A stretch of DNA of 64,000 bases from Escherichia phage rV5_ev158, in sequence record LR694611; one strand, written 5' to 3'. Each line of letters starts with the position of its first letter. Position 1 is the stretch's first letter. Under the pieces are notes generated by a model. It saw nothing but the letters and a program-made list of their open reading frames with translations, was not told the DNA's origin and did not search any database. Positions 7,457 through 61,100 of this stretch are shown piece after piece. The position numbers and the translations under genes are program-made.

Positions 7457-7484
7457 AATGGCTCACTTTGTTGGTGAGCCAGAA

Positions 7485-24018: not shown

Positions 24019-24065
24019 TGTTTTCAAAGAGGGTTTGGTTCCCTCTTCTTTAAAAGGAACACGTT

Positions 24066-29875: not shown

Positions 29876-30004
29876 CACACAATCAGCTGCCCGGCTAAAG
29901 TGCTGGAAGCGCACCTATAACACATCTTTCAACTAAATTTCCTACCACCACAATCACTTACCTACCACACATGACTGTTTGCTTGTTTAGTGAGCAGTCA
30001 TGCC

Positions 30005-30033
30005 TTGACATTCTTGCCTATCCTGATAAAATT
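30005..30033 (+). promoter_or_regulatory. sigma70-like promoter TTGACA-16-TAAAAT reading into ORF-free DNA
   Basis: -35 at 30005-30010, -10 at 30027-30032; no ORF of 60 aa or more on either strand for about 2.2 kb downstream. Confidence 0.45.
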
Positions 30034-31382
30034 AAGTTCTTCTCTTTTCTTTTACCGAGTAATTCGGGTTTTCTGTTCTCTTCGGTTTGAAGGGGTATGG
30101 AGATACACCTGAGTGAACAGGGTGAACAACCGAACCATTGGCTATGGCATTAGCATGGCGAAGCGGACGGGTGACGAAAGAGGGGCCGGAGGACACCAGT
30201 CACTGCCATATGATATATGGGTGATAACCTGAAGAGTCTGAATAAGTGTTTAAGTACCAGTCAGAGGAAAAGGTGAATGGTAGCCGAAGGGGGATGGGGG
30301 GTTTCTTGTATCTTTAATTTGTATATTATGTATACACTTGTAAACCAATCTCATCTGAATCTGTTTACCACACAAAGCGGATAGAGACAAATATCACCTA
30401 TTAAACTTGAATTATTTATAGAAAATACCACAACACCACTTAAGTCTTTGATTTTACACACAAATCCTACAGATATTCAACCTCCATATTTAACATACTT
30501 GTAACATATTCCATACTCTACCTGTCTGATCAATTTCCCCAACTACATTCTCATATTTTCCCTGTCTGTACTACCCCTGCCCCGCCGGGAGTCCCGTCAT
30601 ATCTGGCTTTCCAGCAAATATCACACCCACAAATATCATTGCCTGAAGAGGGTTTCATCCCATAATACCTGCCTTACCTGAAGAGCGCTTCATACACCAC
30701 GTAAATTTTTTAATTGACCTCCCCCTGCCCCGCCGGAGAGGTTGGCTTTTCCCACACAGACCTGAAGAGTCAGCCAGAAATATCTGAACAGGCCCAATTC
30801 TACCACGATTTTGACCTGACCTACAGGGAGGCCCGAAGGGTCTAGCTTTCAGCTAGAGTCCTTGCAGGACCTACAGGAGCGCTGCCAGGCGGACGGAATG
30901 GGAATACTTCTCATTCTTATAACAATTCTCAAATATCGAGACAGTGAGAGAAATTAATAGGCCAGGCCGTTCACACAGTGGCACAACATTTGCAACCTAT
31001 TTTGGGTGGATGAATGAGAATACCTATCATTGTGAGAACTGTTATCATTACGGGCAATTTAACATAATACCCATTATGCGCACCACCGGCGATACATACA
31101 GGGATTGATAACATGGGTTACTGTTTACGCACATAACAATTATATTTCTTACTATTTGTGTGGGATATAGTTAGCAGCCGATAGATTAGATATTAACCTG
31201 CAGACTTCTGACCGTCCAGACGTCTAAACGCCCACACACCAAGGATTATACATACACTCCTGAATGTAAACAGGGCCGCAAAAATGCTACCATACAAGCT
31301 TGTAAATTTTTCATGCAGCACTTGACAAAGAGGAGAAAAACTTGTCTGACATAATGTGACCTAACTGACACAACATGACACT

Positions 31383-31471
31383 TTTACACACCTATTAGTT
31401 TACACACTGGATTGTTTACATTCCTGATTGTTCACATGCTAACCATTTACATGATTGACTGTTTACACACC
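31383..31471. repeat. iteron-like array, six copies of (T/A)GTT(T/C)ACA spaced 14-16 bp
   Basis: TTTTACACACC, AGTTTACACAC, TGTTTACATTC, TGTTCACATGC, CATTTACATGA, TGTTTACACACC; further TGTTTAC copies near 31121, 31265 (inverted), 31871, 31924, 31973. Confidence 0.6.
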
Positions 31472-31479
31472 GATAATCA

Positions 31480-31773
31480 GCCATGCCATTCGTTTGCATG
31501 AAAACAATTAACAAGATAACAATCGACAAGTTAATAATCTTTCGCTGGCTATGCCAGGTGACTAGGTCACCCCTTCGGGCGTTCCTATGACATAATATAA
31601 AAGCAGGGCAACTATTAGCAGATCTATAGTTGCCTTGCTTGTTATGTCATGATTAACTAAATACAAGGCAACTATGATCTGATTAATAGTTTGCAGACAA
31701 ACTATCACGGGGGTGATGGTTACTGCTTTTATATTATGTCGCGACTCCGTCGCGCCATGCCATTCGTTTGCAT
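31480..31773. repeat. 20 bp perfect direct repeats flanking a palindrome-rich 274 bp module
   Basis: GCCATGCCATTCGTTTGCAT at 31480-31499 and 31754-31773; between them a ~66 bp imperfect palindrome (31586-31652, centre AGATCT), GCAACTAT/ATAGTTGC inverted repeats and hairpin CGCGACTCCGTCGCG. Confidence 0.6.
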
Positions 31774-32380
31774 AGTTGCCTTATTGTTACGAATAAAACA
31801 ATTGCATTGTTAATGATTTCTTATCTTTCTCTTAGTCATCTAATGATTCCAGTCAGTATAGTAATGTACAGTAAACATTAGACGACTAAAGATTTCTCTG
31901 TTTATGATAACTCATCTTGATAATTTCGGACTGTTTACGAAAAATGTTGACACCTGAGCTGATTTATGTTATGCAGTTTACACGAATAATTATTTTATGC
32001 AGGTATTGACTATTCCGTTATTCTGTGGTTGGAATAAATACTTTGCAGGCTATAGAATGGCGTGCGTACGTGAATTCTGAGATCTGGCGGCTATAGTTAT
32101 ACTCGATTTTTCGCGTAGAACACGCTTTCGATGCTGTGTAAGTGTATGACTTATAAAGATTTTTAGTTGTTGACAAGATATTGGAGATGTGCATCAGGTT
32201 AAAATTTGTGCAATAGCGGCATTACGTGCACTTTTGGGAGAGAAAACGGGTAAAAATGGACTTGCTACCACACAATGAAAAATTATGCAATAGTTATTTT
32301 CCATGTATATTTGTACAGTATGTGGGATTGATGGCTAGTCAATTATTCCACTTGCCAGGTAGGGCCGTTTATGGTAGGAG

Positions 32381-32404
32381 AAGAGCAGACAAAAAGAAAG
32401 GGGC
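32381..32404 (-). terminator. Rho-independent terminator for the minus-strand block
   Basis: AGGGGCCTAAGCCCCT hairpin; on the minus strand it is followed by a T-run (plus-strand AAAAAGAAA upstream). Confidence 0.6.
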
Positions 32405-32433
32405 CTAAGCCCCTTGATAATTCAGTTAAAAAA

Positions 32434-32853
32434 TTATAATGATTCGTATATTTCAAAAATCCGATTTGCCAGGTCGTTACGGTAGCGGAATTTTTCCTCA
32501 CGTTTGATCATAAGATCTTTATAGCCGTACTCTTTAAGCACTTCATTAACTTTATGGCGGCATACTTTCATATTATCCTGCGCGTCACCAATAAATCTGT
32601 TGCTATGGTGCATGGCTTTAATTTCTTCTTCCAGGACCAGGGCAACTATGCGGACCGGATCAAGCTGATAGGCGGTAACATCCATGCGGCATTGTAAACG
32701 GCTTTTTACGTCTGCCACCGGATATACTGCAACCTCTTCCCCGTCAACATTGATAATAATTAGTTTACCATCGATTTCGAATCCTTTCGCCGCCGGACCG
32801 TGACAAAAAGCGTTATCAAAGCTATATGCCGGATTATTAGATTTAATGTTCAT
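32434..32853 (-). CDS. hypothetical protein
   Basis: 139 aa; last gene of the minus-strand block. Confidence 0.5.
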   Translation of the reverse strand: MNIKSNNPAYSFDNAFCHGPAAKGFEIDGKLIIINVDGEEVAVYPVADVKSRLQCRMDVTAYQLDPVRIVALVLEEEIKAMHHSNRFIGDAQDNMKVCRHKVNEVLKEYGYKDLMIKREEKFRYRNDLANRIFEIYESL

Positions 32854-32997
32854 GGTGTTTTTACCTCTTAGTTAATTTTCTTACAACTTCCCTTCAAAAA
32901 AGAATATAGCAAAACTGCCGATCCCTGTCAACCAGGGATAGCATAATTTTTATGTGATCAAGGGGCTTTATTGCCCCTGACCATGTAACTTGTTGTA

Positions 32998-33261
32998 TTA
33001 TTTGTTGCTCATCCAGTTTTCCCAAGCTGCCTGATAATCTGCCTCACTACGGCGGATCTCTTCTTGCTCTTCAAGGCGGATCTCTTCTTCCAGGTACCCC
33101 AAGATGTCAGCCTTTTTAGTCTGGCGTAGCATCCAGTCATCTTTTTTGCGAGTGAAGATCTTATAAGCTTTCTCGCAAACCTCTTTTTTGCTACCTTTCT
33201 GGACTTCAAGAACACGATAAGCCATATATTGAACTAATTTGAGCTGATCAAGACGTTTCAT
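32998..33261 (-). CDS. hypothetical protein
   Basis: 87 aa, charged. Confidence 0.45.
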   Translation of the reverse strand: MKRLDQLKLVQYMAYRVLEVQKGSKKEVCEKAYKIFTRKKDDWMLRQTKKADILGYLEEEIRLEEQEEIRRSEADYQAAWENWMSNK

Positions 33262-33321
33262 GATGTTTACCTCTTTGTGCGGTTCTGATTAGTGGGCCTT
33301 TTGGCCCGTGTCATTATCTTA

Positions 33322-33594
33322 TTACTTATGGCGGCAGAATTCAAGCGTTTTTAATTGATAATCTTCCTCAGCCTGGAGTACAACCGCCTCGATCATTTCG
33401 TTGGCATTGTTGAAGCCATACCCTTTAGCGAACTCGTCCGCACCACCTTCGTGATCATGTTCTGCGTTCATCGCTTCCACAAAATGGAATTCCAAATTGT
33501 TGAGGTAGGGGCTTGATGTGCCGTCTTCTTTTTCGATGAGATCCCAAATAGCATTAAAACGTGATTCGACTTCTTGATTAATCCAGCTTGACAT
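33322..33594 (-). CDS. hypothetical protein
   Basis: 90 aa; AGAGGAAAA upstream of ATG; TTGACA promoter-like sequence in the upstream intergenic region. Confidence 0.45.
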   Translation of the reverse strand: MSSWINQEVESRFNAIWDLIEKEDGTSSPYLNNLEFHFVEAMNAEHDHEGGADEFAKGYGFNNANEMIEAVVLQAEEDYQLKTLEFCRHK

Positions 33595-33812
33595 AGTGTT
33601 TTCCTCTCTTCTGGTTGTTGTGTGGGCACCTTTGCCCCTTCAAGATAAATGTTACCCCACCCCCTGGCAGATGTCAACGGTTTTTATAGTTCTTATATGA
33701 CAGGCAGGCCTGGTGATTGTCTCCCCCTGTTCCCAAGTGCCGCCCGTTTAATAAGAATAGCAAAAGGGGCCGAACAAGTCAACCCCAAAATCAGTACCAA
33801 AACACTTTTTAT

Positions 33813-34457: not shown

Positions 34458-34742
34458 TTAACGGTTCACGTAAGCTTTACCGTTTACCGTCATCGGCAAA
34501 TCTTCCAGGTCTGGATCTTCCTTAAGGTCACGAGCAAGCTCACCGCACCGGATACCCTCGAATCCGTAGTACTCTGTTGTACCGTCATTAAAAGTTTTAG
34601 TGGCAAGGCATAAGCGATAAGTAACCCCGATTCGATTGACGGCATGAATATCCGTTAGATTAACCTCTTTTGCCAGCTCATTAGCCATTGCAGGCGCATT
34701 AAGTCCAACAACCAGGGTAACCGCTGCGATCATCTTTTTCAT
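34458..34742 (-). CDS. secreted small protein (signal peptide)
   Basis: N-terminal MKKMIAAVTLVVGLNAPAMA signal-peptide-like; AAGAGGA upstream. Confidence 0.5.
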   Translation of the reverse strand: MKKMIAAVTLVVGLNAPAMANELAKEVNLTDIHAVNRIGVTYRLCLATKTFNDGTTEYYGFEGIRCGELARDLKEDPDLEDLPMTVNGKAYVNR

Positions 34743-34833
34743 TGTGTCTATCCTCTTTCTGCTACGTTTAAGGCGGCGGTAACCGCCTGTTTATGCTTTG
34801 TTGGTTAATTTTCAGGTATCTGTATAAATTAAA

Positions 34834-35049: not shown

Positions 35050-35233
35050 TTGTCAACCTCACCCGATACCGTTGGAAGACAAGATCACATTAGCCATGGT
35101 TGCAATCAGGCCAATACCCAGGGCAATAACCGGGATCACAGCATCAATTAATTTTTGTTTCATGGTGTTTATTCTCTTCTGTTAGTAACCTTATTCATAG
35201 GGCCGCTGCCACGGCCCCAGGGTAAGGCGGCTA

Positions 35234-35570: not shown

Positions 35571-35792
35571 TTAACGATAATCATCGTACGCTTTATTAAC
35601 CTGGCGAATATAACATTCAAAAGCTAGATCAATAGATTCATATTCACGGATATACTCACCATAGGAAACCACATACATTTCTATAGCTTCCTCATATGCG
35701 AGGAGAATAGAATCTAAGCCTACGATCTCGGTCTTTGCAATAATAGCCATGATTTTTATCCTCTTTGTGGTTGGTGGGGCTTGTTGCTCCAT
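35571..35792 (-). CDS. hypothetical protein
   Basis: 73 aa. Confidence 0.4.
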   Translation of the reverse strand: MEQQAPPTTKRIKIMAIIAKTEIVGLDSILLAYEEAIEMYVVSYGEYIREYESIDLAFECYIRQVNKAYDDYR

Positions 35793-35825
35793 TTTATTTA
35801 TATATTACAGTTTTATATGGTCATG

Positions 35826-36059
35826 TCAACTATTTTCAAAAAATTTTTCTGCTGTGATATTCTTTCCGGTAGGGTTCGCTACTTTCAAAATTCTATCATG
35901 CACCGGACGCCCGAAAGAATAAGATCCGTATACAGTAAACCAATAATCACCGTCAGGCTGTACTATTACCGCCGCATAGGGTACGCCTTTTTCGTTTTTG
36001 CTGACAAAATAGATCACATTGCCATTAATAGCCTCAGTGCGTTTAATTTGTTCCATCAT
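35826..36059 (-). CDS. hypothetical protein
   Basis: 77 aa. Confidence 0.45.
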   Translation of the reverse strand: MMEQIKRTEAINGNVIYFVSKNEKGVPYAAVIVQPDGDYWFTVYGSYSFGRPVHDRILKVANPTGKNITAEKFFENS

Positions 36060-36114
36060 GATGATTTACCTCTCTTTATTTTCATAATTGGGGGCCTTTT
36101 CGGCCCCGCCAGGT

Positions 36115-36399
36115 TTATTTATTGATAGCGTGCAGCGGGAAAGCTACGCCAGGTTGATAAATAACCTTTACAACCTCATCAGGACAAAAGAAGTTGCAGA
36201 ACTCACCGCAATAGGCCTCATCCTCTTTCAACTCTTCATCAACATACTCAAAAAAGTAGTCGATGCTTGGATAATCCTGGCCGGGATTATAGTCAACCAT
36301 CGTTAATAATAACTCTTGATCATTCCGTAGGATGTGCATACCCGCTTTTAAGTATTTTGCTTCCATTTCTACTACATCGCCAGCGGTAACAATAGCCAT
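36115..36399 (-). CDS. hypothetical protein
   Basis: 94 aa. Confidence 0.45.
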   Translation of the reverse strand: MAIVTAGDVVEMEAKYLKAGMHILRNDQELLLTMVDYNPGQDYPSIDYFFEYVDEELKEDEAYCGEFCNFFCPDEVVKVIYQPGVAFPLHAINK

Positions 36400-36526
36400 G
36401 ATTTTAACTCCTATCTATCTGGTCAACGATTGGGGGCCTCCCCCTCGACAACTCTTATTATCCATATTGTCGGGAATGATGCAAGTACTTCTTTAAAAAT
36501 TTTTTAAGCGCCCCGTATGCCGTTGT

Positions 36527-37269: not shown

Positions 37270-37315
37270 GTCTATCACTCCTTGTTAACTGCGTGGTATT
37301 TTAACAGGGTTTAAA

Positions 37316-37359
37316 TTTACTTTATTGATGGCCCTGGAGTCAAGGCCATCTAAAAATAA
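37316..37359 (-). promoter_or_regulatory. conserved 44 bp promoter/operator-like element, copy 1
   Basis: TTTACTTTATTGATGGCCCTGGAGTCAAGGCCATCTAAAAATAA; on minus strand TTGACT -35 lies in the loop of palindrome GATGGCC...GGCCATC; about 47 nt upstream of the next minus-strand gene. Confidence 0.5.
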
Positions 37360-37362
37360 ATT

Positions 37363-37563
37363 TTACAGGCCTACAATCTCTTTGATTCGTTTAACCGCTG
37401 CCTCAGCGCCTTGGGGGTAAAAATTATGGTAACCAATCACGCGAGTGATACTAATCGCCGTTTGATGATCTTCATAGTCGCCCTTGAAGATTTCTTGACC
37501 GTCAATCAGCACGGCAATTTTTTCTTCTTTTTTGAAGTTAATAACGCGGATATTGTTGCTCAT
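37363..37563 (-). CDS. hypothetical protein
   Basis: 66 aa. Confidence 0.4.
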   Translation of the reverse strand: MSNNIRVINFKKEEKIAVLIDGQEIFKGDYEDHQTAISITRVIGYHNFYPQGAEAAVKRIKEIVGL

Positions 37564-37702
37564 TTTGTTTCTCCTTTCTGGTTTTTGTGGTGGTGGGGAT
37601 TAGCTCCCCGTTGATTGTTATTATCCACATTCCGGACCGGATTGCAACACCACGGAAGAAAAATTTTTTAAAAAGATAGGCCCCCATGATCGGGGGCCGT
37701 TC

Positions 37703-38477: not shown

Positions 38478-38858
38478 TTAAAAATTATCGCCGTAAATCT
38501 TTCCGCTTTCTGCCCATACCACCACGCGGGGCATACTATCCCACACGTCTTGTTTTAGATTGAGCGCGTGCAATTCTTCGGTGGTGCCCATACCAGGCAC
38601 GGGCTGATTGTATACTGCAAAACGACCACCTGCATAATCGTAGGCCAGAGTTAAATCACACTGGATCATCTTTTTGATCATGGCGTTGAGCATAGCGTTA
38701 GCCGCATACTGGTCACGTTTTAAAGGCAACTCTTTGATTAGTTTGCGATAGTTTTCAATGTGATCGCACACTGTTTCACGTGGAAGATCTTTCATGTCCT
38801 CGCGAAAGGTAACCAGGTTAAACATAACGGTGTCAATAGCTTTAGTAGTGTTTTTCAT
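38478..38858 (-). CDS. hypothetical protein
   Basis: 126 aa; upstream TTGCAA/TATATT promoter-like sequence and leader hairpin GGGGCAAGACGTTTGCCCC. Confidence 0.5.
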   Translation of the reverse strand: MKNTTKAIDTVMFNLVTFREDMKDLPRETVCDHIENYRKLIKELPLKRDQYAANAMLNAMIKKMIQCDLTLAYDYAGGRFAVYNQPVPGMGTTEELHALNLKQDVWDSMPRVVVWAESGKIYGDNF

Positions 38859-38947
38859 AATGTTTACCTCTTTGTTTTGTGTGGGGGCAAACGTCTTGCC
38901 CCTTGAGTTTTAATATAGCAGGTTTTTAGGTTATTGCAACACTTTAT

Positions 38948-39571
38948 TTATGAAAAAGTCATCTCGCCATATTCATCCACATCAAACCGCCAATCATTGG
39001 CCTCGATAAGGCCGATCAGGTTTTCGGTGGTGAATTGTTCAAGATAGGCTTGCTCCAGGTCTACGTAAACCTTGCGGGATAACTCCCGTACCGTCTCGGT
39101 GATCAGCTCTTCCAGCTCTTCAACTTTATCCTCTTGCTTGGTGGTCAGGTCTAGCCAATTGGTATCGATGCACCCGCCTATTGTGTTTTCGTGATGATAA
39201 TGGCTAAACGGGATACGTTCAACGCTGGCTGACAGTTCGCCATCATGCATTGTGCCGAACAAGTGTCTAATTAAGCGGAATTTTGTAAGCGCTTTAACCT
39301 TACGCAAGAATTTTTCTAAGTTTACATTTTCAGCACTAATTGATGCGCCGTCGCCTTGACACCAAAAGCCGGACCAATGTACTTCGGTATCTTCAAGGCC
39401 GTACTCTGGAAAAACATATTCTTTATAGTATTCAATTACACTTTCTGCGAAAAAATCCTCTCCGCTGTGTTCTTCTCTTTCGCGGACCATTTCAATAGCC
39501 TTTTCTTTTTGTTCGTCGGTCAGCACGTCGAAAGATAAATTGCAACCTGTGGTAATGTTAACGGTGGTCAT
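38948..39571 (-). CDS. hypothetical protein
   Basis: 207 aa; preceded by promoter and leader hairpin. Confidence 0.5.
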   Translation of the reverse strand: MTTVNITTGCNLSFDVLTDEQKEKAIEMVREREEHSGEDFFAESVIEYYKEYVFPEYGLEDTEVHWSGFWCQGDGASISAENVNLEKFLRKVKALTKFRLIRHLFGTMHDGELSASVERIPFSHYHHENTIGGCIDTNWLDLTTKQEDKVEELEELITETVRELSRKVYVDLEQAYLEQFTTENLIGLIEANDWRFDVDEYGEMTFS

Positions 39572-39628
39572 GATATTTTCTCCTGTTTTCTTTGTTAGTG
39601 GCGGGAAGTTTTCCCGCCTGTGTTTTTA

Positions 39629-39656
39629 ATTATACTTATTGAGATTTACTTGTCAA
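39629..39656 (-). promoter_or_regulatory. sigma70-like promoter TTGACA-16-TATAAT with leader hairpin
   Basis: Minus-strand -35 at 39651-39656, -10 at 39629-34; leader hairpin GGCGGGAAAACTTCCCGCC (39600-39618) before the RBS. Confidence 0.55.
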
Positions 39657-39906
39657 CACTATTTTTTAAATTATTGTGGCGCAAAATGTTTAAAATCTCC
39701 TCAACGTCATCAACACGGCGGCAATTTTTAAACGCTACCAATTGCCCCATGATTTTAATCACTGGGCGGCCTTGCCAGTGCCCCTGGAGAAAGCGCGCCT
39801 TGACTTTATCGGTGGAACTATCACGCCACCAAATGGCCTTGTTGTTGCAGTAGTAAAAATTATTCAGGACAACATCAACTTTATCAAAATTTTTTAATTT
39901 ACGCAT
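39646..39906 (-). CDS. hypothetical protein
   Basis: 86 aa. Confidence 0.45.
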   Translation of the reverse strand: MRKLKNFDKVDVVLNNFYYCNNKAIWWRDSSTDKVKARFLQGHWQGRPVIKIMGQLVAFKNCRRVDDVEEILNILRHNNLKNSVDK

Positions 39907-40110
39907 GGCGTTTACTCCTTTCTCTCTTTGATGTGGTTAGTATAGCTAACCTGTTTAAGATGTCAAGCTTTAAATAAAATCACTGTCAATGATATTTTTA
40001 ACGCCATAAAACGGCCCTAAGCGATGTTTTCAGGTTAAAGGGGGGCGATTGCATAGGTGGGGCCTTTTTGGCGCTTACAGGGCCAACCAGGGGCGCTATT
40101 CGTAGGATAG

Positions 40111-40139
40111 AAATAAAAAGCCCCGCACAATGGCGGGGC
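40111..40139 (-). terminator. Rho-independent terminator
   Basis: GCCCCGC...GCGGGGC hairpin; minus-strand T-run after it. Confidence 0.6.
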
Positions 40140-40147
40140 GTTGGTTG

Positions 40148-40369
40148 TTATTTGTCTTTATGGCGGTATCGTTCTGCCTGTCGTTCACGTTCCAAAAGTA
40201 GGCCAGGCAATTTACGATCATAATGATTTCGCCAGATCTTTCCAAATCTTTTTGGCTTATTCAGTTTATTGTTACGCTGGCGTCGTTCCGGCAGCTCTTC
40301 GGAATCATGAGATCGCTTTACAATCTTCTCAAAATTAATCTTCATATATTCCCCCCTTGCTAACTTCAA
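40148..40369 (-). CDS. hypothetical basic protein
   Basis: Arg/Lys-rich; alternative ATG start at 40345. Confidence 0.4.
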   Translation of the reverse strand: MKLARGEYMKINFEKIVKRSHDSEELPERRQRNNKLNKPKRFGKIWRNHYDRKLPGLLLERERQAERYRHKDK

Positions 40370-40706
40370 TATTGGCCTGAATAGCCCGGATACGCCGTTT
40401 TATAACCTCCTGATCCTTGCAATCATATCCCCAAAAGTCTACGATTTTTGCGCCTCCAGCCTTTAGGCGGTATAGTGTTTCTTGCATCTTGTAGGCCGGG
40501 ATCGGTCGCGGTGTTACCTGGTCGCCCTTCTCATTCTTGTACTTGATAATGTAGTCTTCATTGTCGTTGAATATCCAAAATGGGTATTCTGTGAGCGCGT
40601 TGCTCTCTTTTTCGTTTTTAGATTGGATCTTGTTTACAATTAAAGCCGTAGCAATAGCGCCAATAATAAAACTTGCCCCACTGATCATGTTACTTTCTCC
40701 TTTCAT
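40335..40706 (-). CDS. hypothetical protein with N-terminal TM segment
   Basis: ISGASFIIGAIATALIV. Confidence 0.45.
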   Translation of the reverse strand: MKGESNMISGASFIIGAIATALIVNKIQSKNEKESNALTEYPFWIFNDNEDYIIKYKNEKGDQVTPRPIPAYKMQETLYRLKAGGAKIVDFWGYDCKDQEVIKRRIRAIQANIEVSKGGIYED

Positions 40707-40764
40707 TGTATTGATAAACTATCTTTATAGATGGCCCTGCTACCAGGACCACCGAAAAAACAGT

Positions 40765-41010
40765 TTATTTGACGATACCGACAAAACAGATCCCGCCTTC
40801 CCCTATATAGGCAATATCGGTAATTTTATAATTTGTCAAGATCCGCGTGTTCAGCTCATTAATAAAATCTGTCATCGCGTTGGTGTAGTTGTCTTCCGTG
40901 TCTAAGGCATAATCCCAGGTGTAAACCTTTTTACGTCCGAAGCCTTTTACCATGATACGGGCGCTTTTGGTGTTGGTAGGGGCATAATATTTGGTGATTA
41001 GTGCTGCCAT
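40765..41010 (-). CDS. hypothetical protein
   Basis: 81 aa; preceded by conserved 44 bp element copy 2. Confidence 0.45.
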   Translation of the reverse strand: MAALITKYYAPTNTKSARIMVKGFGRKKVYTWDYALDTEDNYTNAMTDFINELNTRILTNYKITDIAYIGEGGICFVGIVK

Positions 41011-41053
41011 GGTTTTAACTCCTATGCATTAGTTCAGTGTTAACAGTATAAAG

Positions 41054-41097
41054 TTTACTTTATTGATGGCCCTGGAGTCAAGGCCATCTAAAAATAA
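41054..41097 (-). promoter_or_regulatory. conserved 44 bp promoter/operator-like element, copy 2
   Basis: Near-identical to copy 1; about 44 nt upstream of gene start 41010. Confidence 0.5.
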
Positions 41098-41099
41098 TC

Positions 41100-41441
41100 T
41101 TACTCGTTTTCTTCCAGCTCCGCAAGCTCTTCTTTTGCTTCTTCTAACTCTGTCTGTAATTCCTGGTATTCTTCATCGTCCTCAATATCCAGGCTGTCGA
41201 TGTAGTCGCTAAATCCGCAGCGGTAAGCGATAGGATCTAGCTCCTTGAGGATACGCGACGGAAGAAAAGAAATGTTTCCGATCATGATTTCGCCGTAGAT
41301 CTCGTCTAACCATTCATCATAGTTTTCGTCGTACTTGTCCTCGTCGATTTCAAAGGTATCGATCTTGTTCTCAAGGTCTGCGATCTGTTTTTTCAGTGCG
41401 GCAACCTGAATAGCTTTTTCTGCGGCGGTCATAGTAGTCAT
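41100..41441 (-). CDS. highly acidic coiled-coil protein
   Basis: 113 aa, Asp/Glu-rich. Confidence 0.5.
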   Translation of the reverse strand: MTTMTAAEKAIQVAALKKQIADLENKIDTFEIDEDKYDENYDEWLDEIYGEIMIGNISFLPSRILKELDPIAYRCGFSDYIDSLDIEDDEEYQELQTELEEAKEELAELEENE

Positions 41442-41492
41442 GGTGTTTTCTCCTTTTGTGTGTTCTGGGAAGTTTTCCCGTTTACGGGTTTA

Positions 41493-41520
41493 AGTATACC
41501 GATCTAAGTTAGCTTGTCAA
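41493..41520 (-). promoter_or_regulatory. sigma70-like promoter TTGACA-16-TATACT with leader hairpins
   Basis: Leader contains GGGAAGTTTTCCC / CCCGTTTACGGG hairpins (41467-41488). Confidence 0.5.
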
Positions 41521-41640
41521 TTAAAAATTTAAGAAAAATTTTGCAAAACTGTTAGCGCTACTCATTAACATTTGCGCCAGGATGTAACCGACAACGCAGA
41601 CGATAATAGTTACCTTTGTGTATTGGCGTGTAGTGCCCAT
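41521..41640 (-). CDS. small membrane peptide, 39 aa
   Basis: AAGGGGG upstream of ATG; TM-like VTIIVCVVGYILAQMLM; lies just downstream of element copy 3. Confidence 0.3.
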   Translation of the reverse strand: MGTTRQYTKVTIIVCVVGYILAQMLMSSANSFAKFFLNF

Positions 41641-41674
41641 CTTAAAGCCCCCTTTTTCGCTTAACTGAGATTAG

Positions 41675-41718
41675 TTTACTTTATCGATGGCCCTGGAGTC
41701 AAGGCCATCTAAAAATAA
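41675..41718 (-). promoter_or_regulatory. conserved 44 bp promoter/operator-like element, copy 3
   Basis: Same sequence with one substitution (ATCGATGG). Confidence 0.5.
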
Positions 41719-41720
41719 AC

Positions 41721-42125
41721 TCAATAAGTTTTTAGTACTTTCCCGTCCAACCTGTCTAGCTGGATCTCAATGGCTGCAGAAAACCTATTATAAACCACGT
41801 CGCCCATGGAATCCAACCAGTCTATGACGTTATACACTTGCTCTTTGTTCTTGCAGGTCCGGATCCGTTTCATGATGTAAGCCGGATCAATATTGGTACT
41901 CTCGTTGGTGTTCCCCTGTACCTGGTTTGCCGTATTAGCCACATCTTTAATGGCCTTTACCACCACCTGGAAGGGCTTTAAGGTGCCTTTTGCGTTCATC
42001 TCACGCGCTTTTGCGGCGCGGTTGTTATAGGTTACACAACGGCGGCAAATGTTCACTAAGTGCATGTCAATAATTTTTTCATCGTTTGCCAGTTCGTTCA
42101 TGATGCGGCGTACGTTCTTATTCAT
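41721..42125 (-). CDS. hypothetical protein
   Basis: 134 aa. Confidence 0.5.
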   Translation of the reverse strand: MNKNVRRIMNELANDEKIIDMHLVNICRRCVTYNNRAAKAREMNAKGTLKPFQVVVKAIKDVANTANQVQGNTNESTNIDPAYIMKRIRTCKNKEQVYNVIDWLDSMGDVVYNRFSAAIEIQLDRLDGKVLKTY

Positions 42126-42173
42126 GATCTTTTTCCTTTGTGCTGGCGGGAAACATTCCCGCCTTTTGTGTCT

Positions 42174-42201
42174 AGTTTACTTAAATTTTGCAGCGTGTCA
42201 A
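42174..42201 (-). promoter_or_regulatory. sigma70-like promoter TTGACA-16-TAAACT with leader hairpin
   Basis: Leader hairpin GGCGGGAAACATTCCCGCC (42145-42163). Confidence 0.5.
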
Positions 42202-43130: not shown

Positions 43131-43673
43131 TTTTGTACCTCCTCTTCAATTGTTACCTATCCTATAGCATAGGCCCACCAGGTTTGCAAGCCTTCATTCT
43201 CTCCTACCTGGTCAGTTAGGCCCTGCCAGGCTGGCCCCGCCAGGTTGCAGCGGTCAGCGCATCAGGTTAGAATTTTTTTTTTTGAAAAGTGTTGACAGCG
43301 GCCCCGCCAGGTGGCAAAATATACCTATCGAAAGGACGGCAGGCACCGGTGACGGGGGAGACAACCACCGGGGATGGGCGCTGCATGAAATGAGAACGAT
43401 TATCATTATCGTCTAAAAATTTATGCAAAAACTTCTTGCTTTCTTTGTCCTGTGTGTTACTATAATAACAAGCCGGGGCAGTAGGGGCCGGGAGACAATC
43501 ACCGGGCCTGCCCGTTATTCTGCAAACGAGAATGATTATCATTCAAAATTCTAAATGAGAACTCCTCGCATTTAATAAATTTAATTAGCACGCTAATTAC
43601 CCTACGTAACAATTTCCTATAAAATAGTATCCACTAAAATATTCCCATATAGAAATTTTAAAAATCCATTTCT

Positions 43674-43836
43674 GAAAACGAAAAATCGATTTCGTCCCCA
43701 AAAATTTCAGGTCGAGAGCCGGAACGATTTCCGGAAAATCCGATTCAGAAAACGAAAAACAGATCGAGTACTGAGAAATTTATCGAGAAAAATTTTCAGA
43801 AAATTCAATCTTTGAAACGAAAAACAGATCGAGTAC
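43674..43836. repeat. direct repeats GAAAACGAAAAACAGATCGAGTAC (two near-exact copies plus one degenerate)
   Basis: Copies start near 43674 (degenerate), 43747 and 43813; period about 66-73 bp; no convincing ORF. Confidence 0.55.
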
Positions 43837-44147
43837 TTGGAAAGCTGCGCCACAACTTCAAGGTAGTGGTTGGATTATTACTATAAAAGGTCAAGGGTAA
43901 GTGGGGGAAGTTCTAGTAGAAGGGTGTGAGCATGTGCGGGAAATCTGTAATGGTGGTCTGGAATATGGTGCAGACGATAGGATGAGTGGTTCATCTCGTC
44001 GTGCCTGCTCTGAAAAATCCATTTTAGTTTTCGATCCATTTTCTGATTTTCTAAGGATTTTAAAATATCCTGGTAGGTAAAATATCAAAAGGAGGAAATC
44101 CATTTTAGAAATCCTCCTGATCTCTGGCAACCTGATAACTTAAAATA

Positions 44148-45275: not shown

Positions 45276-45467
45276 TCACTTGTTGTTAATAAGTTCTAAA
45301 ACTTTCTGTCTTACTTTGTCAAGATCTGTTGATTCAAAAACTGTACGATATCCCCAACTTTGCCCATATGAGTGATTGCAATCCCCGTAGCACCATTGCT
45401 CAATTTGATAGTATTCAAGGAACGGGTGCTGTCTAACTATGATACCATCCCGGTTAAAAATTACCAT
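45276..45467 (-). CDS. hypothetical protein
   Basis: 63 aa. Confidence 0.4.
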   Translation of the reverse strand: MVIFNRDGIIVRQHPFLEYYQIEQWCYGDCNHSYGQSWGYRTVFESTDLDKVRQKVLELINNK

Positions 45468-47642: not shown

Positions 47643-47675
47643 TATACAAAAATGCCCCACCCTTTCGGGCAGGGC
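47643..47675 (-). terminator. Rho-independent terminator (repeated element, copy 1)
   Basis: GCCCCACCCTTTCGGGCAGGGC hairpin; minus-strand T-run follows; same element at 58468-58495. Confidence 0.55.
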
Positions 47676-49922: not shown

Positions 49923-50005
49923 TATGGAATCTCCGATTTTATTTGAACAACATAGAAGGAGACACTATTTTAGCATCCCCTTCTGTAAATTACAATAGGT
50001 ATTTG

Positions 50006-50950: not shown

Positions 50951-51282
50951 TACGCTTCCTCGTCGTCTAAGTAATCATCAAGAGAGGTGAAGATTTCACC
51001 GAAGTATTCTAAGATTTCTAGCTCACGTGTGGTGCAGCAAACATAATCGCCTTGGTCGTCCTTAATAGTGGCCTCTTTACCCAGAACATCTACTTCAAAT
51101 TCATCGTTCAGCAGGACGGCCCCTGTGTAAACTTTGTCAGCTGTGCAGTCCCGAAAAGCAGAGTCCTTTTCCAGATAGTCTGGCTTAACCTTGGCTTTAA
51201 TTCGTTGATATTGTTTGGTCATTGCTGTGGTCCCCTTTCGTTTTGATAGGGCCATTATATTAGGCCCCATCACTGTTGTCAA
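50950..51282 (-). CDS. hypothetical protein (paralogue of 51286-51540)
   Basis: KPDYLEKDSAFRDCTADKVY vs KPECVANDRAFKDCTVGAIY; alternative ATG start at 51222. Confidence 0.45.
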   Translation of the reverse strand: MTTVMGPNIMALSKRKGTTAMTKQYQRIKAKVKPDYLEKDSAFRDCTADKVYTGAVLLNDEFEVDVLGKEATIKDDQGDYVCCTTRELEILEYFGEIFTSLDDYLDDEEA

Positions 51283-51285
51283 GTA

Positions 51286-55617: not shown

Positions 55618-57696
55618 TTAAAAAGGCGTTTCATCATCCTCAAAACCAGGGACCGGGTCAGAGGATGGATCATCGTACTGGAGGTCTTCCTGCGTGTCAA
55701 CAGGCTTAACAGTAGGAGTTACAACCTTATCAGCCACAACCTTGCCCATAGGTGTTTCTACAACTGCATGCTCCTGATCCTCAAACATAGCCTGAGGTCT
55801 CCAAACAACCTCCCCACCTTCTCCGTCTGTAAACATTTGCATTTCTTTGTCCCAGTACCAATTACTGGCATCATGGAACTTACCTGTGTGCGGGTCCATA
55901 ACCAAAGTGTCAGCAATACCTAGAGTTTTTGCTGGACGGTTTTTAAGACCTACCAGACGGACACGTCCACGAGAACGATCCACCATTTCTTCGGCCTCGA
56001 CACCTATGACTACCCAACTCAACTGTTCAAGCCCCGCCGATCCTCGCAAATTCTCTTTTCGCACAGGATACCAGAAAGGTAACGGGTTACCATCCTTGTC
56101 CTTAGGAGGCACAATCTCTGTACGTTTGAGGTGAGCGATCACCAAGATAAACACGTTAAACTGCTTACAAAACGCAGCCAGCTGAGTCATAGCCATGTCC
56201 AGTTCTTTTCGCTCATCCTTAACATTAAGCCCTGAAATTACCATGGACAGGTGATCCAGCACAATATAACGGCAATGGTACAGGCAAACCATTTGCTTAA
56301 GCTTGGTAATCAACTCGTCCACCGGAATAGATCCGAAATGTTTGAACACTTTGATTTTTCCAGCTTTTGCCCATGATTGGTGAATCTCTGCGTGTTCTTG
56401 ATCAGTTAAAAACTGGCTAGGATCTTCAACAAACTCTTTAACATCAAACCCTAACTGGTTTGCATACAAGGAGTTAATTGCTTCCTCTGGGTCCTCCTCA
56501 AGATGGATCATACATAGACGATCATCCTCTTCATAGTCATCAGCCTTCGGGCATGTCGGGTCCATTAGGTATCTTGCAATACAATGTTCCAGTTTTTTAG
56601 CTACAGTTGTTTTACCGCCCCCTGATGGCCCTGTAAGCATTACGAGTGTCCCTTTGTGCAAGCCTTTTAGCATTTTTTGCAGTTTTGGGAACTCTGCGCT
56701 GATATCTACCCCGTTGGAAGTCTTTTTCCGCAAAGACTCGATAGAGAAGTCTTCTAAATCCGACACAGCATCAGGCACATATTTAACAGGGTGCCGGAAC
56801 ATGTTGACAATATCTTCCAGCTTTTTAGCCTTCAGCATGTCACGGATATCTTTTACCCCGTCAGGGTCATTTACTTCACCAGGGTATTCTACGTGGTAAA
56901 CGTTATCAGCCATCAAAAATGCTGCGATATTGTGCGTGGCCTCAACACCTTTAATGACGTGTTTTTGCTTCTCTACCTCGTTAGCTGCATCGTTATCCAT
57001 TGCCAGCACAACTGTTCCATAGCTACGGATAAACTTCTCATTGTTTGCAAAAGTATCTACTGCGTTTGCACATCCACAGTTAATTCCAACAAAAGGCAGG
57101 CAGGGTTTTCCTGCCAGATCACCACCGTTGATAACTGCGTCGATCCCGTCCTGGACCTCTTTAGCCCACTGCTTCACCTTTGCCGGGGCTTTAGCGTTGG
57201 TGAGAATCCCTTTTACTTGTATCTGATATGCAGCCTGCCATGCTGCAATAACATCACCTTCTCCCTCACAAACGTTAATCTGCTTACGGTTGTTGGAAGA
57301 TGCACACAGCTTTTGACCAAACATCTGGGAGTTGGCCTTTACGATGCCAACAACGGAGAAGTGGCCCCTTTGTTCTTTAGGAATAGTCCAGTCACGCTTT
57401 TTGAAACCGGACAGATTTCCGTAGCGGTCGTAATATGGGAAATATGTTGCAGTGACTGTCACACCGTCTTCTTGTGACAATGCTGATCGCACACCAAAAT
57501 ATTGTGCAGCCATCAGACCGATATTTTGTTGTGGGACAGGGACAATTTTAGTATTTTCTAAAACAGTCTCTACAGTTTCAACTTCTTTTTCATCACGATA
57601 GTCTCGTTTCACACTTCCCCCACTTTTATACTTAGTTGCTTTCGGGTTTGGCTCACCGAAACGGTTGTATGCAGATGCCATAAATTTACTTCCCAT
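55618..57696 (-). CDS. primase-helicase (TOPRIM primase plus DnaB/gp4-like helicase)
   Basis: 692 aa; TOPRIM-like VVLAMDNDAAN; Walker A LTGPSGGGKTT; Walker B-like IVLDHLSMV. Confidence 0.75.
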   Translation of the reverse strand: MGSKFMASAYNRFGEPNPKATKYKSGGSVKRDYRDEKEVETVETVLENTKIVPVPQQNIGLMAAQYFGVRSALSQEDGVTVTATYFPYYDRYGNLSGFKKRDWTIPKEQRGHFSVVGIVKANSQMFGQKLCASSNNRKQINVCEGEGDVIAAWQAAYQIQVKGILTNAKAPAKVKQWAKEVQDGIDAVINGGDLAGKPCLPFVGINCGCANAVDTFANNEKFIRSYGTVVLAMDNDAANEVEKQKHVIKGVEATHNIAAFLMADNVYHVEYPGEVNDPDGVKDIRDMLKAKKLEDIVNMFRHPVKYVPDAVSDLEDFSIESLRKKTSNGVDISAEFPKLQKMLKGLHKGTLVMLTGPSGGGKTTVAKKLEHCIARYLMDPTCPKADDYEEDDRLCMIHLEEDPEEAINSLYANQLGFDVKEFVEDPSQFLTDQEHAEIHQSWAKAGKIKVFKHFGSIPVDELITKLKQMVCLYHCRYIVLDHLSMVISGLNVKDERKELDMAMTQLAAFCKQFNVFILVIAHLKRTEIVPPKDKDGNPLPFWYPVRKENLRGSAGLEQLSWVVIGVEAEEMVDRSRGRVRLVGLKNRPAKTLGIADTLVMDPHTGKFHDASNWYWDKEMQMFTDGEGGEVVWRPQAMFEDQEHAVVETPMGKVVADKVVTPTVKPVDTQEDLQYDDPSSDPVPGFEDDETPF

Positions 57697-58480
57697 TAAT
57701 TCTGCTCCTTACTACAGGCTCGTTTGCTAGGAATACGGCTTTTGCCCAGCCACGTGGTGTGAGGCTTCGGATCATCTTCGTTCTTGCACTCTTTCCACCC
57801 AGCTTGGCGTGTTGCATGGAATACCCGCTAACCGCGTCAACTATTTGCGGGACAGGTTTTGTGGCCGGGATTATAAATCCATTACCTATCCAGCCGCAAG
57901 TTATTTTTGGATAGGCATCACGTGGAGCTATAAATTCAGGAAACCAGGGGTTTACATCATCCTCCGGTAAATACCCGCCATAGTCAGAAGGGTGAAAACG
58001 GTAATCAGGTTTGCGCCACAGTGTGGACATAACACCCACAGGATTCTCTACATGCCACGGGCAATCGTAAATCTCTCCCAACTCTTCTGCAACCCGAGCA
58101 TCCTTTACAGCATTAATCTGGATCAGCGGGTCCTTAGCCAGCTTCTTCTTAAAGTGTGCAGCACCTGACACCGCTAAGTGGGTGCACGGAGGAAATGCAA
58201 GAACAAAGTCCGGAGCTGGGTACATGCAGAAAGTTTCCTGAGGGAACCATGGATCAATCCAATAATCTACATAGTGAATATTTGGATGATCGGTGATCAC
58301 CTCTGCATAACTGCCGTGGTCAGCACCTTCTGCGTTAAAGCACAGGCACAGATATCCAGCTTTTGCCCAGTCAATGACTGCACCGCCAGATCCGTCAAAT
58401 AGACTCCACACAACACCTTTGTGGTAGTGTTCTTTATAGATAAATTTCAATTTGCTGTCTCCTAATGCAAAAAGCCCCAC
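57686..58480 (-). CDS. C5-cytosine methyltransferase-like protein (short)
   Basis: LFDGSGG (motif I FxGxG), AFPPC (motif IV PC) and HVENPVG (motif VI ENV) in C5-MTase order; only 264 aa. Confidence 0.45.
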   Translation of the reverse strand: MGLFALGDSKLKFIYKEHYHKGVVWSLFDGSGGAVIDWAKAGYLCLCFNAEGADHGSYAEVITDHPNIHYVDYWIDPWFPQETFCMYPAPDFVLAFPPCTHLAVSGAAHFKKKLAKDPLIQINAVKDARVAEELGEIYDCPWHVENPVGVMSTLWRKPDYRFHPSDYGGYLPEDDVNPWFPEFIAPRDAYPKITCGWIGNGFIIPATKPVPQIVDAVSGYSMQHAKLGGKSARTKMIRSLTPRGWAKAVFLANEPVVRSRINGK

Positions 58481-58495
58481 CCTTTCGGGCAGGGC
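58468..58495 (-). terminator. Rho-independent terminator (repeated element, copy 2)
   Basis: Identical GCCCCACCCTTTCGGGCAGGGC hairpin. Confidence 0.55.
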
Positions 58496-58501
58496 CTAGT
58501 G

Positions 58502-58984
58502 TTAAACCCGGATACCTATTGTATACTCGGTGGATACCAATGTCAAATCTAAATTTAAAATTTCTTGCATCTCATAGTATGCATCCAGGGTGAGATACAT
58601 TTCCCCATCCTTTTCTACATACTTGTCCAAGTGCTTGAGGCATTTCGGATAACTATCAAGGGCAGCCTTTAGGCACTCAAACTCTGTGCTGTTGATGAGT
58701 CCTTCCATCTTGGCTACCCGTTCTGGGGTAACGATAGCACTGTAGTGAGATTTAGCTTCCTGGATGCAATGGGTCCAAGCATCAACTTTCTCTTCGAAAA
58801 GTCCGAAGAACTTCTTTTTGGTGAGCTTCAGATTCTTTAAGTGCTTAAGCACTCGGTTACCGATCACAGCCACATCACGAAACTTAAGGATCACTTTGTC
58901 GATATCCTCGCGGCCTATTTTCACAAAGCAAGCCTCACACATTTCAGGAGCTGCGTAACCTACTTTCCACATAAAATCTGACAT
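58502..58984 (-). CDS. hypothetical protein
   Basis: 160 aa. Confidence 0.5.
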   Translation of the reverse strand: MSDFMWKVGYAAPEMCEACFVKIGREDIDKVILKFRDVAVIGNRVLKHLKNLKLTKKKFFGLFEEKVDAWTHCIQEAKSHYSAIVTPERVAKMEGLINSTEFECLKAALDSYPKCLKHLDKYVEKDGEMYLTLDAYYEMQEILNLDLTLVSTEYTIGIRV

Positions 58985-59395: not shown

Positions 59396-59739
59396 CAGAA
59401 ACCTCCCACTTCTTCAGCAAATGCAGCTGCTGTCGTCGCTGCATCCAGATAGGACTCTAGTTCACGGGCTGCACGTTTGTAAATTGAGTGTCGCAAATCG
59501 TTTGGCAGTTGGTGGAAGTCCACCTCTTCACCGTTGTGGTAAACATGCACATCGGTAATTTGTCTAAATCCGTAATAGTCAACATCAGAATCACGGCACT
59601 CTGGGTCTGGCAACTGGACAACTGCCTGAGCTTCCACAGTGAACATATCGTCAAGTTCGAAATCGATTTCAAAAGTGTATGGTTTATAACATTTCATCAT
59701 TTGATTGTACTCTTTATTGATCAGACTTATCTTTCGCAA
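59395..59739 (-). CDS. hypothetical protein
   Basis: 114 aa. Confidence 0.45.
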   Translation of the reverse strand: MRKISLINKEYNQMMKCYKPYTFEIDFELDDMFTVEAQAVVQLPDPECRDSDVDYYGFRQITDVHVYHNGEEVDFHQLPNDLRHSIYKRAARELESYLDAATTAAAFAEEVGGF

Positions 59740-61039: not shown

Positions 61040-61100
61040 CGTTTGGTGCTCTCCTTAGTTTTTTGTGGGGAGGAGGCCTCCCCTTTATACTCACATCTTA

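Follow-up and report, generated by a model that had tools for sequence, protein, structure and literature searches.

Promoter and leader-hairpin cassettes ahead of small early genes in an rV5-like coliphage, with a proposed role at the 5' ends of messenger RNAs

What is a GC-rich stem-loop doing between a promoter and the gene that it drives, and why should a phage repeat this arrangement gene after gene? The question arises in a stretch of 64,000 nucleotides (nt) from Escherichia phage rV5_ev158 (sequence record LR694611), hereafter the window, whose sequence matches the Vequintavirus record of rV5_ev168 (LR694610.1) at 100% identity (window position = record position - 74125). A sequence-only reading had pointed out several minus-strand genes preceded by a promoter, a hairpin at the predicted transcript start and a ribosome-binding site (RBS). 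This order is borne out and extends to more genes than were named. We propose that these are early-gene cassettes akin to the promoter-early stem-loops (PeSL) of phages RB49 and phi1, in which a sigma-70 early promoter and a G(n)-loop-C(n) stem-loop stand before ORFans in plastic regions (Arbiol et al. 2010, PMC2839356), and that the leader hairpin, lying near the predicted 5' end, might act as an ompA-type barrier to decay by RppH and RNase E. We regard the chances of this proposal as evenly balanced.

The cassettes run in order through a -35 box, 16 or 17 nt, a -10 box, 8-13 nt, a GC stem-loop, a spacer, a Shine-Dalgarno (SD) sequence and ATG. The stems of the leader hairpins have 5-8 base pairs (bp) and their loops 3-5 nt, and the 19-32 nt between hairpin and ATG, SD included, are A/C-rich, G-poor and unstructured. 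The full layout is found at 42201-42126, 41520-41442, 39656-39572, 38939-38859, 37647-37564, 36484-36400, 33677-33595, 33344-33262 and 61123-61040, with a decayed copy at 35829-35751, and an alignment keeps ten cassettes in register from the -35 box to the ATG. At least nine small early genes at 32-43 kilobases (kb) are concerned, plus one at 61 kb, all on the minus strand.

The promoters, as predicted from sequence only, are of the sigma-70 type (TTGACA/TTGCAA-16/17-TATAAT-like, mostly with the 16-nt spacer) and match the consensus at 8-12 of 12 positions. The 25 nt on the 5' side of the -35 box, where PeSL cassettes have an AT-rich tract, are 56-88% A+T, against 57% for the window, most but not all of them being enriched. 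All ten cassettes have a pyrimidine-purine (Y-R) step 6-8 positions past the -10 box. There are approximately 16 promoter-like sites at 32-43 kb. Nine of them are followed by a leader hairpin, which is strong in seven cases and weak or decayed in two; three others have theirs around the -35 box, and the last four are without any. Beyond 43 kb a leader hairpin accompanies only one of about 12 promoters. Two looser cases of leader hairpins are found in the plus-strand block, at 7459-7481 and 24027-24047.

The five hairpins initially quoted are all in the sequence, one of them about 2-3 nt away from where it had been placed (38884-38902 rather than 38886-38905). Promoters stand ahead of four of them as described, at 39656, 41520, 42201 and 38939, whereas none is recognisable ahead of the hairpin at 36091-36107. 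The class was also incomplete, since further promoter-linked hairpins lie at 37595-37609, 36432-36444, 33624-33637, 33294-33307 and 61067-61083. The promoters and hairpins are the following:

42174-42201, minus strand: promoter TTGACA-16-TAAACT of cassette c42145 (rV5 P194)
42145-42163, minus strand: leader hairpin GGCGGGAA-TGT-TTCCCGCC (plus strand GGCGGGAAACATTCCCGCC), stem of 8 bp, loop of 3 nt, 10 nt after the -10 box; gene 41721-42125
41493-41520, minus strand: promoter TTGACA-16-TATACT of cassette c41467 (rV5 P192)
41467-41479, minus strand: weak leader hairpin GGGAA-AAC-TTCCC (GGGAAGTTTTCCC in the plus-strand listing), stem of 5 bp, 13 nt after the -10 box; gene 41100-41441
39629-39656, minus strand: promoter TTGACA-16-TATAAT of cassette c39600, 12 of 12 consensus matches (rV5 P185)
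39600-39618, minus strand: leader hairpin GGCGGGAA-AAC-TTCCCGCC (plus strand GGCGGGAAGTTTTCCCGCC), stem of 8 bp, loop of 3 nt, 10 nt after the -10 box; gene 38948-39571, of 207 amino acids (aa)
38912-38939, minus strand: promoter TTGCAA-16-TATATT with a TG extension, cassette c38884
38884-38902, minus strand: leader hairpin GGGGCAA-GACGT-TTGCCCC (plus strand GGGGCAA-ACGTC-TTGCCCC), 9 nt after the -10 box; gene 38478-38858
37620-37647, minus strand: promoter TTGCAA-16-GATAAT of cassette c37595
37595-37609, minus strand: leader hairpin GGGGA-GCTAA-TCCCC, 10 nt after the -10 box; gene 37363-37563
36457-36484, minus strand: promoter TTGCAT-16-GATAAT of cassette c36432, read from sequence
36432-36444, minus strand: leader hairpin GGGGG-AGG-CCCCC, 12 nt after the -10 box; gene 36115-36399
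36091-36107, minus strand: intercistronic hairpin GGGGCC-GAAAA-GGCCCC (GGGGCCTTTTCGGCCCC in the plus-strand listing), stem of 6 bp, 7 nt past the stop codon of gene 36115-36399 and before the RBS of gene 35826-36059
35802-35829, minus strand: promoter TTGACA-16-TAATAT of cassette c35773 (rV5 P174)
35776-35792, minus strand: decayed leader hairpin TGGAGC-AACAA-GCCCCA, one pair being an A.C mismatch; most relatives have a perfect GGGGC/GCCCC hairpin
35200-35217, minus strand: promoter-less intercistronic hairpin GGGCCG-TGGCAG-CGGCCC, before the RBS of gene 35059-35163
34771-34788, minus strand: promoter-less hairpin AGGCGG-TTACCG-CCGCCT, before the RBS of gene 34458-34742
33649-33677, minus strand: promoter TTGACA-17-TAACAT of cassette c33624 (rV5 P168)
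33624-33637, minus strand: leader hairpin GGGCA-AAGG-TGCCC, 11 nt after the -10 box; gene 33322-33594
33316-33344, minus strand: weaker promoter TTGAAT-17-TAAGAT of cassette c33294, overlapping the end of the upstream gene
33294-33307, minus strand: leader hairpin GGGCC-AAAA-GGCCC, 8 nt after the -10 box; gene 32998-33261
61067-61123, minus strand: cassette TTGACT-17-TAAGAT, 11 nt, hairpin GGGGAGG-CCT-CCTCCCC (61067-61083); methyltransferase gene 59714-61039

Is such an arrangement expected by chance? The window holds 62 perfect GC hairpins, against 31 +/- 8 in Markov-1 controls. Under a strict criterion (a perfect hairpin with 5 or more bp, of which four or more are GC pairs), 6 of the 24 minus-strand promoter leaders have a hairpin where 0.23 would be expected. 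None of 2000 shuffles reached six, and all six hairpins begin 9-11 nt after the -10 hexamer. For eight of the ten predicted leaders (z-scores of -1.5 to -5.4), 95% or more of their dinucleotide shuffles fold less well; the hairpin is the sole stable element of the predicted leaders and the SD is unpaired. The hairpins at 39600 and 42145 both fold at -14.6 kcal/mol (z-scores -5.4 and -3.4, respectively), and the z-scores are -3.0 at 33294, -2.7 at 61067 and -2.5 at 38884. The hairpin at 41467 is marginal (-5.5 to -5.9 kcal/mol, z-score -1.05) and is a truncated relative of the GGCGGGAA type. An alternative CCCG/CGGG hairpin close to it, at 41480-41491, was dismissed because it is not conserved among relatives.

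Related genomes tell what is maintained in these elements. We compared the window with 11 other Vequintavirus loci, which are 85-95% identical to it. Differences from the window affect 4.5% of the cells in stems, 16.9% of those in loops and 7-8% of those in the 10-nt flanks, and a hairpin is retained at every orthologous site despite sequence change. Whole hairpins are inverted at c42145 (in locus L008, the same hairpin being resized in L019), at c38884 (in FV3) and at c34771 (in FV3, HMD-6 and WM), while both arms are lengthened together at c38884 in HMD-6 and WM (by 2 bp) and at c36432 in FV3. The c38884 site shows eight variants in 12 genomes, every one of them a hairpin, with a G.U pair on the sense strand in PDX. 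Seven variants are found at c36432, one stem pair occurring in GC, GU and AU states, and four genomes have a second allele of c37595, GGGGAG-ACA-CTCCCC, in which the loop and the stem length are remodelled. At 33294 the stem is invariant and the loop is AAAA, GGGA or GAAA across relatives; at 39600 a C-to-U change in L008 retains a G.U pair on the sense RNA. The weak hairpin at 41467 is kept in 10 of 11 loci, and in phage PDX a hairpin of the c38884 type (GGGGCAAGACGTTTGCCCC) is substituted at c33624. On these comparisons, the leader hairpins are under selection for pairing, whereas loop sequence, orientation and length are free. Two candidate indicators of the transcribed strand were dropped on the way. 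The A.C mismatch at 35776 had been taken as evidence for plus-strand RNA, but this hairpin is perfect in most relatives and the mismatch hence reflects decay in rV5_ev168. The polarity of the arms (G-first, C-second) is uninformative because a perfect inverted repeat reads alike on both strands.

The cassette is also found outside the genus. Phage Av-05 (Avunavirus) has a copy of the 207-aa protein with 58% amino-acid identity, and upstream of this orthologue lie TTGACA..TACTAT, 11 nt and GGCG-ATACAC-CGCC, i.e. the same layout with a different stem; further cassettes of Av-05 have spacings of 10 and 12 nt. In the Stephanstirmvirinae EmilieFrey (L022, phi92-like) and ukendt (L023, phAPEC8-like), a near-uniform cassette precedes most small early genes: TTGACA-16-TAAnAT, gtatcACAtAGG, GCGGGAA-N3-TTCCCGC or GCGGCA-ATGG-TGCCGC, an A-rich spacer, SD and ATG. 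Most of these hairpins begin 11-12 nt after the -10 box, the start region ACATAGG is conserved, and the GGCGGGAA/TTCCCGCC arms of the 39600 and 42145 hairpins recur in most of these cassettes. Such uniformity suggests concerted evolution or a sequence-specific partner. Scanning IMG/VR for a promoter followed by the exact pattern GCGGGAA-N3-TTCCCGC returned eight stretches on only five contigs, four of which are rV5-like or phAPEC8-like by size or sequence (the matches lie on contigs of 137-153 kb or on a fragment of a close rV5-like contig, and two are on one 97-kb contig), and a search with the 207-aa protein found two close contigs only. So few matches imply that this specific cassette is lineage-restricted.

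What could a hairpin at this place be for? The usual start point of transcription in E. coli is a purine that follows a pyrimidine, 7-8 nt after the -10 hexamer. Every cassette has such a Y-R step, so that the transcript would begin 2-6 nt before the stem. Under our proposal, the host sigma-70 promoter of each cassette would start its transcript at this step and the hairpin would form at the 5' end of every transcript from its own promoter, leaving a single-stranded 5' tail too short for efficient conversion by RppH and for 5'-end-dependent attack by RNase E. The A/C-rich unstructured spacer would then offer the ribosome a landing pad with a strong SD. On read-through RNA, and at the three promoter-less sites, the hairpin would be intercistronic and might act as a barrier to 3' exonucleases or to RNase E scanning. 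In the DNA, the G-run/C-run arms that the hairpins share would provide short homologies for the exchange of cassettes and genes, as has been reported for the PeSL of T4-type phages. Base pairing at the 5' end is known to slow RNase E greatly, and 5' stem-loops stabilise the messenger RNAs (mRNAs) of ompA and papA (PMC3997798). Transcript stabilisation was among the roles suggested for these hairpins by the sequence-only reading, and their anatomy fits it (2-6 nt after the predicted +1, no U-tract, SD unpaired, selection on pairing); the effect itself, like the transcript start and hence the 5'-terminal position of the hairpin, is what we infer as most likely.

The proposal might be carried further. 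Since gp11 of rV5 is a probable homologue of Srd (rV5 genome paper) and Srd of T4 promotes the attack of RNase E on host mRNA (PMC4980113), it becomes a concrete hypothesis that phage messages are selectively protected. One might speculate that the leader hairpin is a lineage-wide mark of 'self' in Vequintavirinae and Stephanstirmvirinae: an Srd-like protein would drive RNase E onto host mRNAs with accessible 5' ends and the hairpin-bearing early mRNAs of the phage would be spared, the same module being the unit of gene shuffling with T4-type phages. We find this wider version unlikely.

Several points weigh against a protective role at the 5' end. Promoter geometry alone would place the hairpin there, and our literature searches for transcript-start or transcriptome data on Vequintavirus, rV5, phi92 and phAPEC8 found none (the single RNA-seq paper mentioning Vequintavirinae sequenced a T5-like phage). 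The predicted tails of 2-6 nt are at least as long as the 2-3 unpaired nt that RppH needs, so that protection may be partial. A 5'-terminal role cannot explain the promoter-less hairpins at 36091, 35200 and 34771, which share the downstream spacer and SD type of the cassettes, unless processing creates new ends. Strong promoters of the same block, at 39966, 42667, 42949 and 45526, lack a hairpin, and the cassettes are partly paralogous, which makes their constant spacing evidence that is not fully independent. There is little formal covariation, RNAalifold giving a single compensatory pair on two orthologous sets, which we attribute to genomes that are too close (only 5-10% diverged). Stem changes giving G.U on the sense RNA (A.C on the other strand) number about six and those of the opposite kind one or two, a bias that is suggestive of sense-strand RNA, although the count (about 6 vs 2) is not statistically significant. 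Finally, the one PeSL stem-loop of RB49 that was tested behaved as a strong terminator, lowering expression to the same extent as rrnB T1 when set between a promoter and lacZ (PMC2839356).

This last result would fit stem-loops that work as PeSL-type attenuators, partly terminating or pausing upstream transcription and damping cumulative read-through so that each gene's own promoter dominates. So would the 'terminator' label that the annotators of phage EdH4 gave to the 42145 and 35776 hairpins, and the three hairpins that lie between genes without a promoter. We nevertheless consider such attenuation rather unlikely. After the stem the sense strand has on average 1.1 T in 8 nt (range 0-3), against 5-7 for seven bona fide terminators on the same strand and in the same region, a consensus terminator scan never listed these hairpins on the minus strand, and the phage has canonical terminators where they are needed. 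An attenuator could sit anywhere between genes, whereas these stem-loops are fixed at 8-13 nt after the -10 box, where they would equally hit the transcripts of their own promoter; and most PeSL stem-loops of RB49 lie inside the promoter instead. The same lack of a sense U-tract, with no alternative pairing and no leader peptide in these leaders, argues against the classical attenuator that had also been suggested. Might the hairpins terminate on the other strand, stopping transcription that runs against the early genes and into their promoters? The scan flags 39600, 42145, 38883, 37591, 35773 and 34771 as terminator-like on the plus strand only, and 5 of 13 hairpins have at least five T in the 8 nt after the stem on that strand. 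Yet the T residues are complementary to an A-rich stretch that separates the -10 box from the hairpin, the other 8 of the 13 have poor plus-strand tails, the antisense tails in EmilieFrey and ukendt are of the CCTATGTGATAC type and not T-rich, no plus-strand genes or good plus-strand promoters point into 32-43 kb, and the wobble changes favour sense RNA. Antisense termination thus seems very unlikely to us.

The inverted repeats might alternatively work as DNA, namely as operators spanning about +4 to +23, to which a dimer of some phage or host protein would bind so as to shut off early promoters. Repressor operators classically lie at such a position, inversion of the whole hairpin is tolerated here as a symmetric site would allow, and the GGCGGGAA-N3-TTCCCGCC arms recur both here (two full copies, one partial) and in most EmilieFrey and ukendt cassettes, together with the ACATAGG start region. 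What makes operators very improbable is that this one position is taken by no fewer than seven unrelated stems in this genome and no fewer than three in ukendt, that stem length (5-9 bp) and loop length (3-6 nt) vary, and that orthologous sites change sequence and retain pairing, including G.U states that break the symmetry of the DNA. It is still less probable that the hairpins are functionless scars of template switching or recombination hitch-hiking with duplicated promoters. Loop inversions and hairpin swaps do reveal active turnover at the DNA level, and the partial paralogy of the cassettes would agree with it, but conservation in stems is about twice that in flanks and about four times that in loops, and hairpins of differing sequence are maintained at all orthologous sites and from genus to genus. 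RNase III processing, which would split polycistronic early RNA into units of one cistron each, as happens to the early RNA of T7, was another role put forward from the sequence, and the dense early region does have hairpins between its cistrons. For RNase III to act on a substrate, about two helical turns (approximately 20 bp) of double-stranded RNA are needed, and the T7 sites are long, irregular hairpins. Stems of 5-9 bp are far below this length, and Rfam 15 covariance models run on both strands of 31-64 kb with E-values up to 1 matched no family; we give this reading next to no weight.

The hairpins seem to matter for DNA exchange as well. Gene 32434-32853 is missing from three genomes. 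In EdH4 the junction of this indel (L005, about 1465-1490) is a hybrid hairpin, to which 32398-32415 contributed the left arm and 32961-32978 the right one. The junction is different in FV3 and HMD-6, hence the locus was hit at least twice. A breakpoint at the hairpin 33766-33786 recurs in five loci, and the loop inversions and the hairpin swap of PDX point the same way. The open reading frame (ORF) at 45276-45467 on the minus strand encodes 63 aa with 88.9% protein identity to an ORF of RB49 (Krischvirus, T4-type; L024, 4001-4192), from which it follows that rV5-like phages and PeSL-bearing T4-type phages exchange such genes, and did so recently. The RB49 copy has an upstream gap of only 23 nt; in a protein search with gene 33322-33594, RB49 was not among the matches listed.

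PeSL come in five positional subclasses, the commonest having the stem-loop between the -35 box and the -10 box or over the latter, and one having it downstream of the -10 box (PMC2839356). Promoters with the -10 hexamer in a hairpin loop are also found in the window, at 51223-51285 (GATGGGGCC-TAATATAAT-GGCCCTATC) and 49923-50005 (AGAAGGGGATGC-TAAAAT-AGTGTCTCCTTCT), and three times in Av-05; the two of the window are of the subclass with the stem-loop over the -10 box. An element of about 45 bp (TTATTTTTAGATGGCC-TTGACTCCAG-GGCCATCAATAAAGTAAACT, minus strand) occurs in three near-identical copies, at 37315-37360, 41055-41100 and 41675-41720, with a variant at 40720-40760. It consists of a 7-bp hairpin (37327-37350, 41065-41088 and 41686-41709, respectively) with a -35-like TTGACT in the loop, followed 18 nt on by TAAACT or TAAATT. 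It is annotated as a terminator in Murica, yet there is no T-run on either strand, and it is a second PeSL-like type of promoter/stem-loop cassette.

The genomic setting is that of an early region. Plus-strand genes at 1-30 kb have functions in nucleotide and DNA metabolism, and genes at 32-64 kb are on the minus strand. The cassette block at 32-43 kb has around 30 genes of 35-207 aa with no assigned function, and so looks like a classical early region in which a phage keeps its genes for host takeover; its content varies among close relatives. In the genome paper of rV5, 33 sigma-70-type promoters and 20 terminators were predicted. P185, P192, P194 and others are in its promoter list (Table S4), but the paper is silent on the sequence downstream of them. 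The leader-hairpin cassette appears to be undescribed for these phages.

Some features of the same region stand apart from the cassettes. A promoter TTGACA-17-TACAAT at 58546 is followed by a full terminator (GCCCTGCCCGAAAGGGTGGGGC and a T-run) and then by the SD and TTG start of gene 57686-58450 (58451-58546); a near-identical terminator hairpin is repeated at 47654-47675. This order of promoter, terminator and gene could be a true attenuator. In the rV5_ev168 record, a coding sequence (CDS) for a 'Phage protein' at 37538-37687 on the minus strand overlaps the promoter, the leader hairpin and the start of gene 37363-37563, as well as the terminator 37679-37698. It is not in the annotations of Murica, EdH4, FV3, 366V and nomine, rV5 having a smaller overlapping ORF there, and is probably a spurious ORF call. 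Between the convergent plus- and minus-strand gene blocks, about 2.5 kb (29877-32433) have no annotated gene. A gene-free stretch of 761 bp at 43387-44147 contains three direct repeats of 57 nt spaced by 65-74 nt, plus other families of short repeats; the repeats look iteron-like, and the stretch could be a replication origin or some other regulatory region. ARAGORN found no transfer RNA in the whole window.

Should early transcripts indeed be capped by these hairpins at their 5' ends, this would provide a simple answer to how virulent phages like T4 can speed the decay of host mRNA and yet keep their own early messages. The cassettes extend PeSL-type mobile modules from T4-type phages to two more subfamilies of coliphages that are candidates for therapy (rV5-like; phi92-like or phAPEC8-like). 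There are practical sides too, since such hairpins are mis-annotated as terminators or hidden under spurious ORFs, and since the cassettes are compact, natural and predictedly strong promoter-leader-RBS parts that might be reused in phage and E. coli engineering.

How does this module compare with known systems? It is best seen as a PeSL-like cassette of Vequintavirinae and Stephanstirmvirinae with the stem-loop in the transcribed leader and a probable ompA-type action. Like the PeSL of RB49 and phi1, it combines a sigma-70 promoter, an adjacent stem-loop, an SD and an ATG for each small ORFan, in dense arrays within a plastic region (here 32-43 kb), and the indel and recombination junctions inside stem-loops described there (PMC2839356) have their counterparts in the hybrid hairpin of EdH4 and the swap of PDX. 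PeSL cassettes are also known in PST and nt-1 (Comeau et al. 2014, PMC4122927). Stems resembling G(n)-loop-C(n) are present here, namely GGCGGGAA/TTCCCGCC, GGGGCAA/TTGCCCC, GGGGA/TCCCC, GGGGG/CCCCC, GGGCC/GGCCC and GGGGAGG/CCTCCCC. The differences are that the stem-loop is mainly in the leader, 8-13 nt after the -10 box, which is a minority subclass among PeSL (in the RB49 cassettes that we inspected it lies between the -35 box and the -10 one or spans the latter), that the hosts of the module are Vequintavirinae rather than Straboviridae, and that it has no U-tract, which makes the terminator role assigned to PeSL stem-loops doubtful here.

Intrinsic terminators have GC-rich hairpins of similar size, and two annotation teams labelled some of the present ones as such, but these have no U-tract on the coding strand and are located between a promoter and the gene it drives. 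The T7 RNase III sites and boxB of lambda nut are likewise RNA hairpins in early leader or intercistronic RNA of phages. The T7 sites are much longer, and boxB has a conserved loop with boxA alongside, whereas loops vary freely here, even inverting, and the alignment of the cassettes revealed no common boxA-like motif. Such free, invertible loops made us dismiss a nut-like or other sequence-specific RNA site. The closest functional analogues might be the 5' hairpins of ompA and papA (Emory, Bouvet and Belasco 1992; Arnold et al. 1998; PMC3997798), where a short hairpin also lies a few nt from the 5' end (here a predicted one) and is followed by an accessible RBS, and where the effect is set by structure and not by sequence, as is selection on pairing in the cassettes. 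Yet, in ompA and papA this is a feature of single genes, whereas here it is a repeated and exchangeable module found on about ten genes of one phage.

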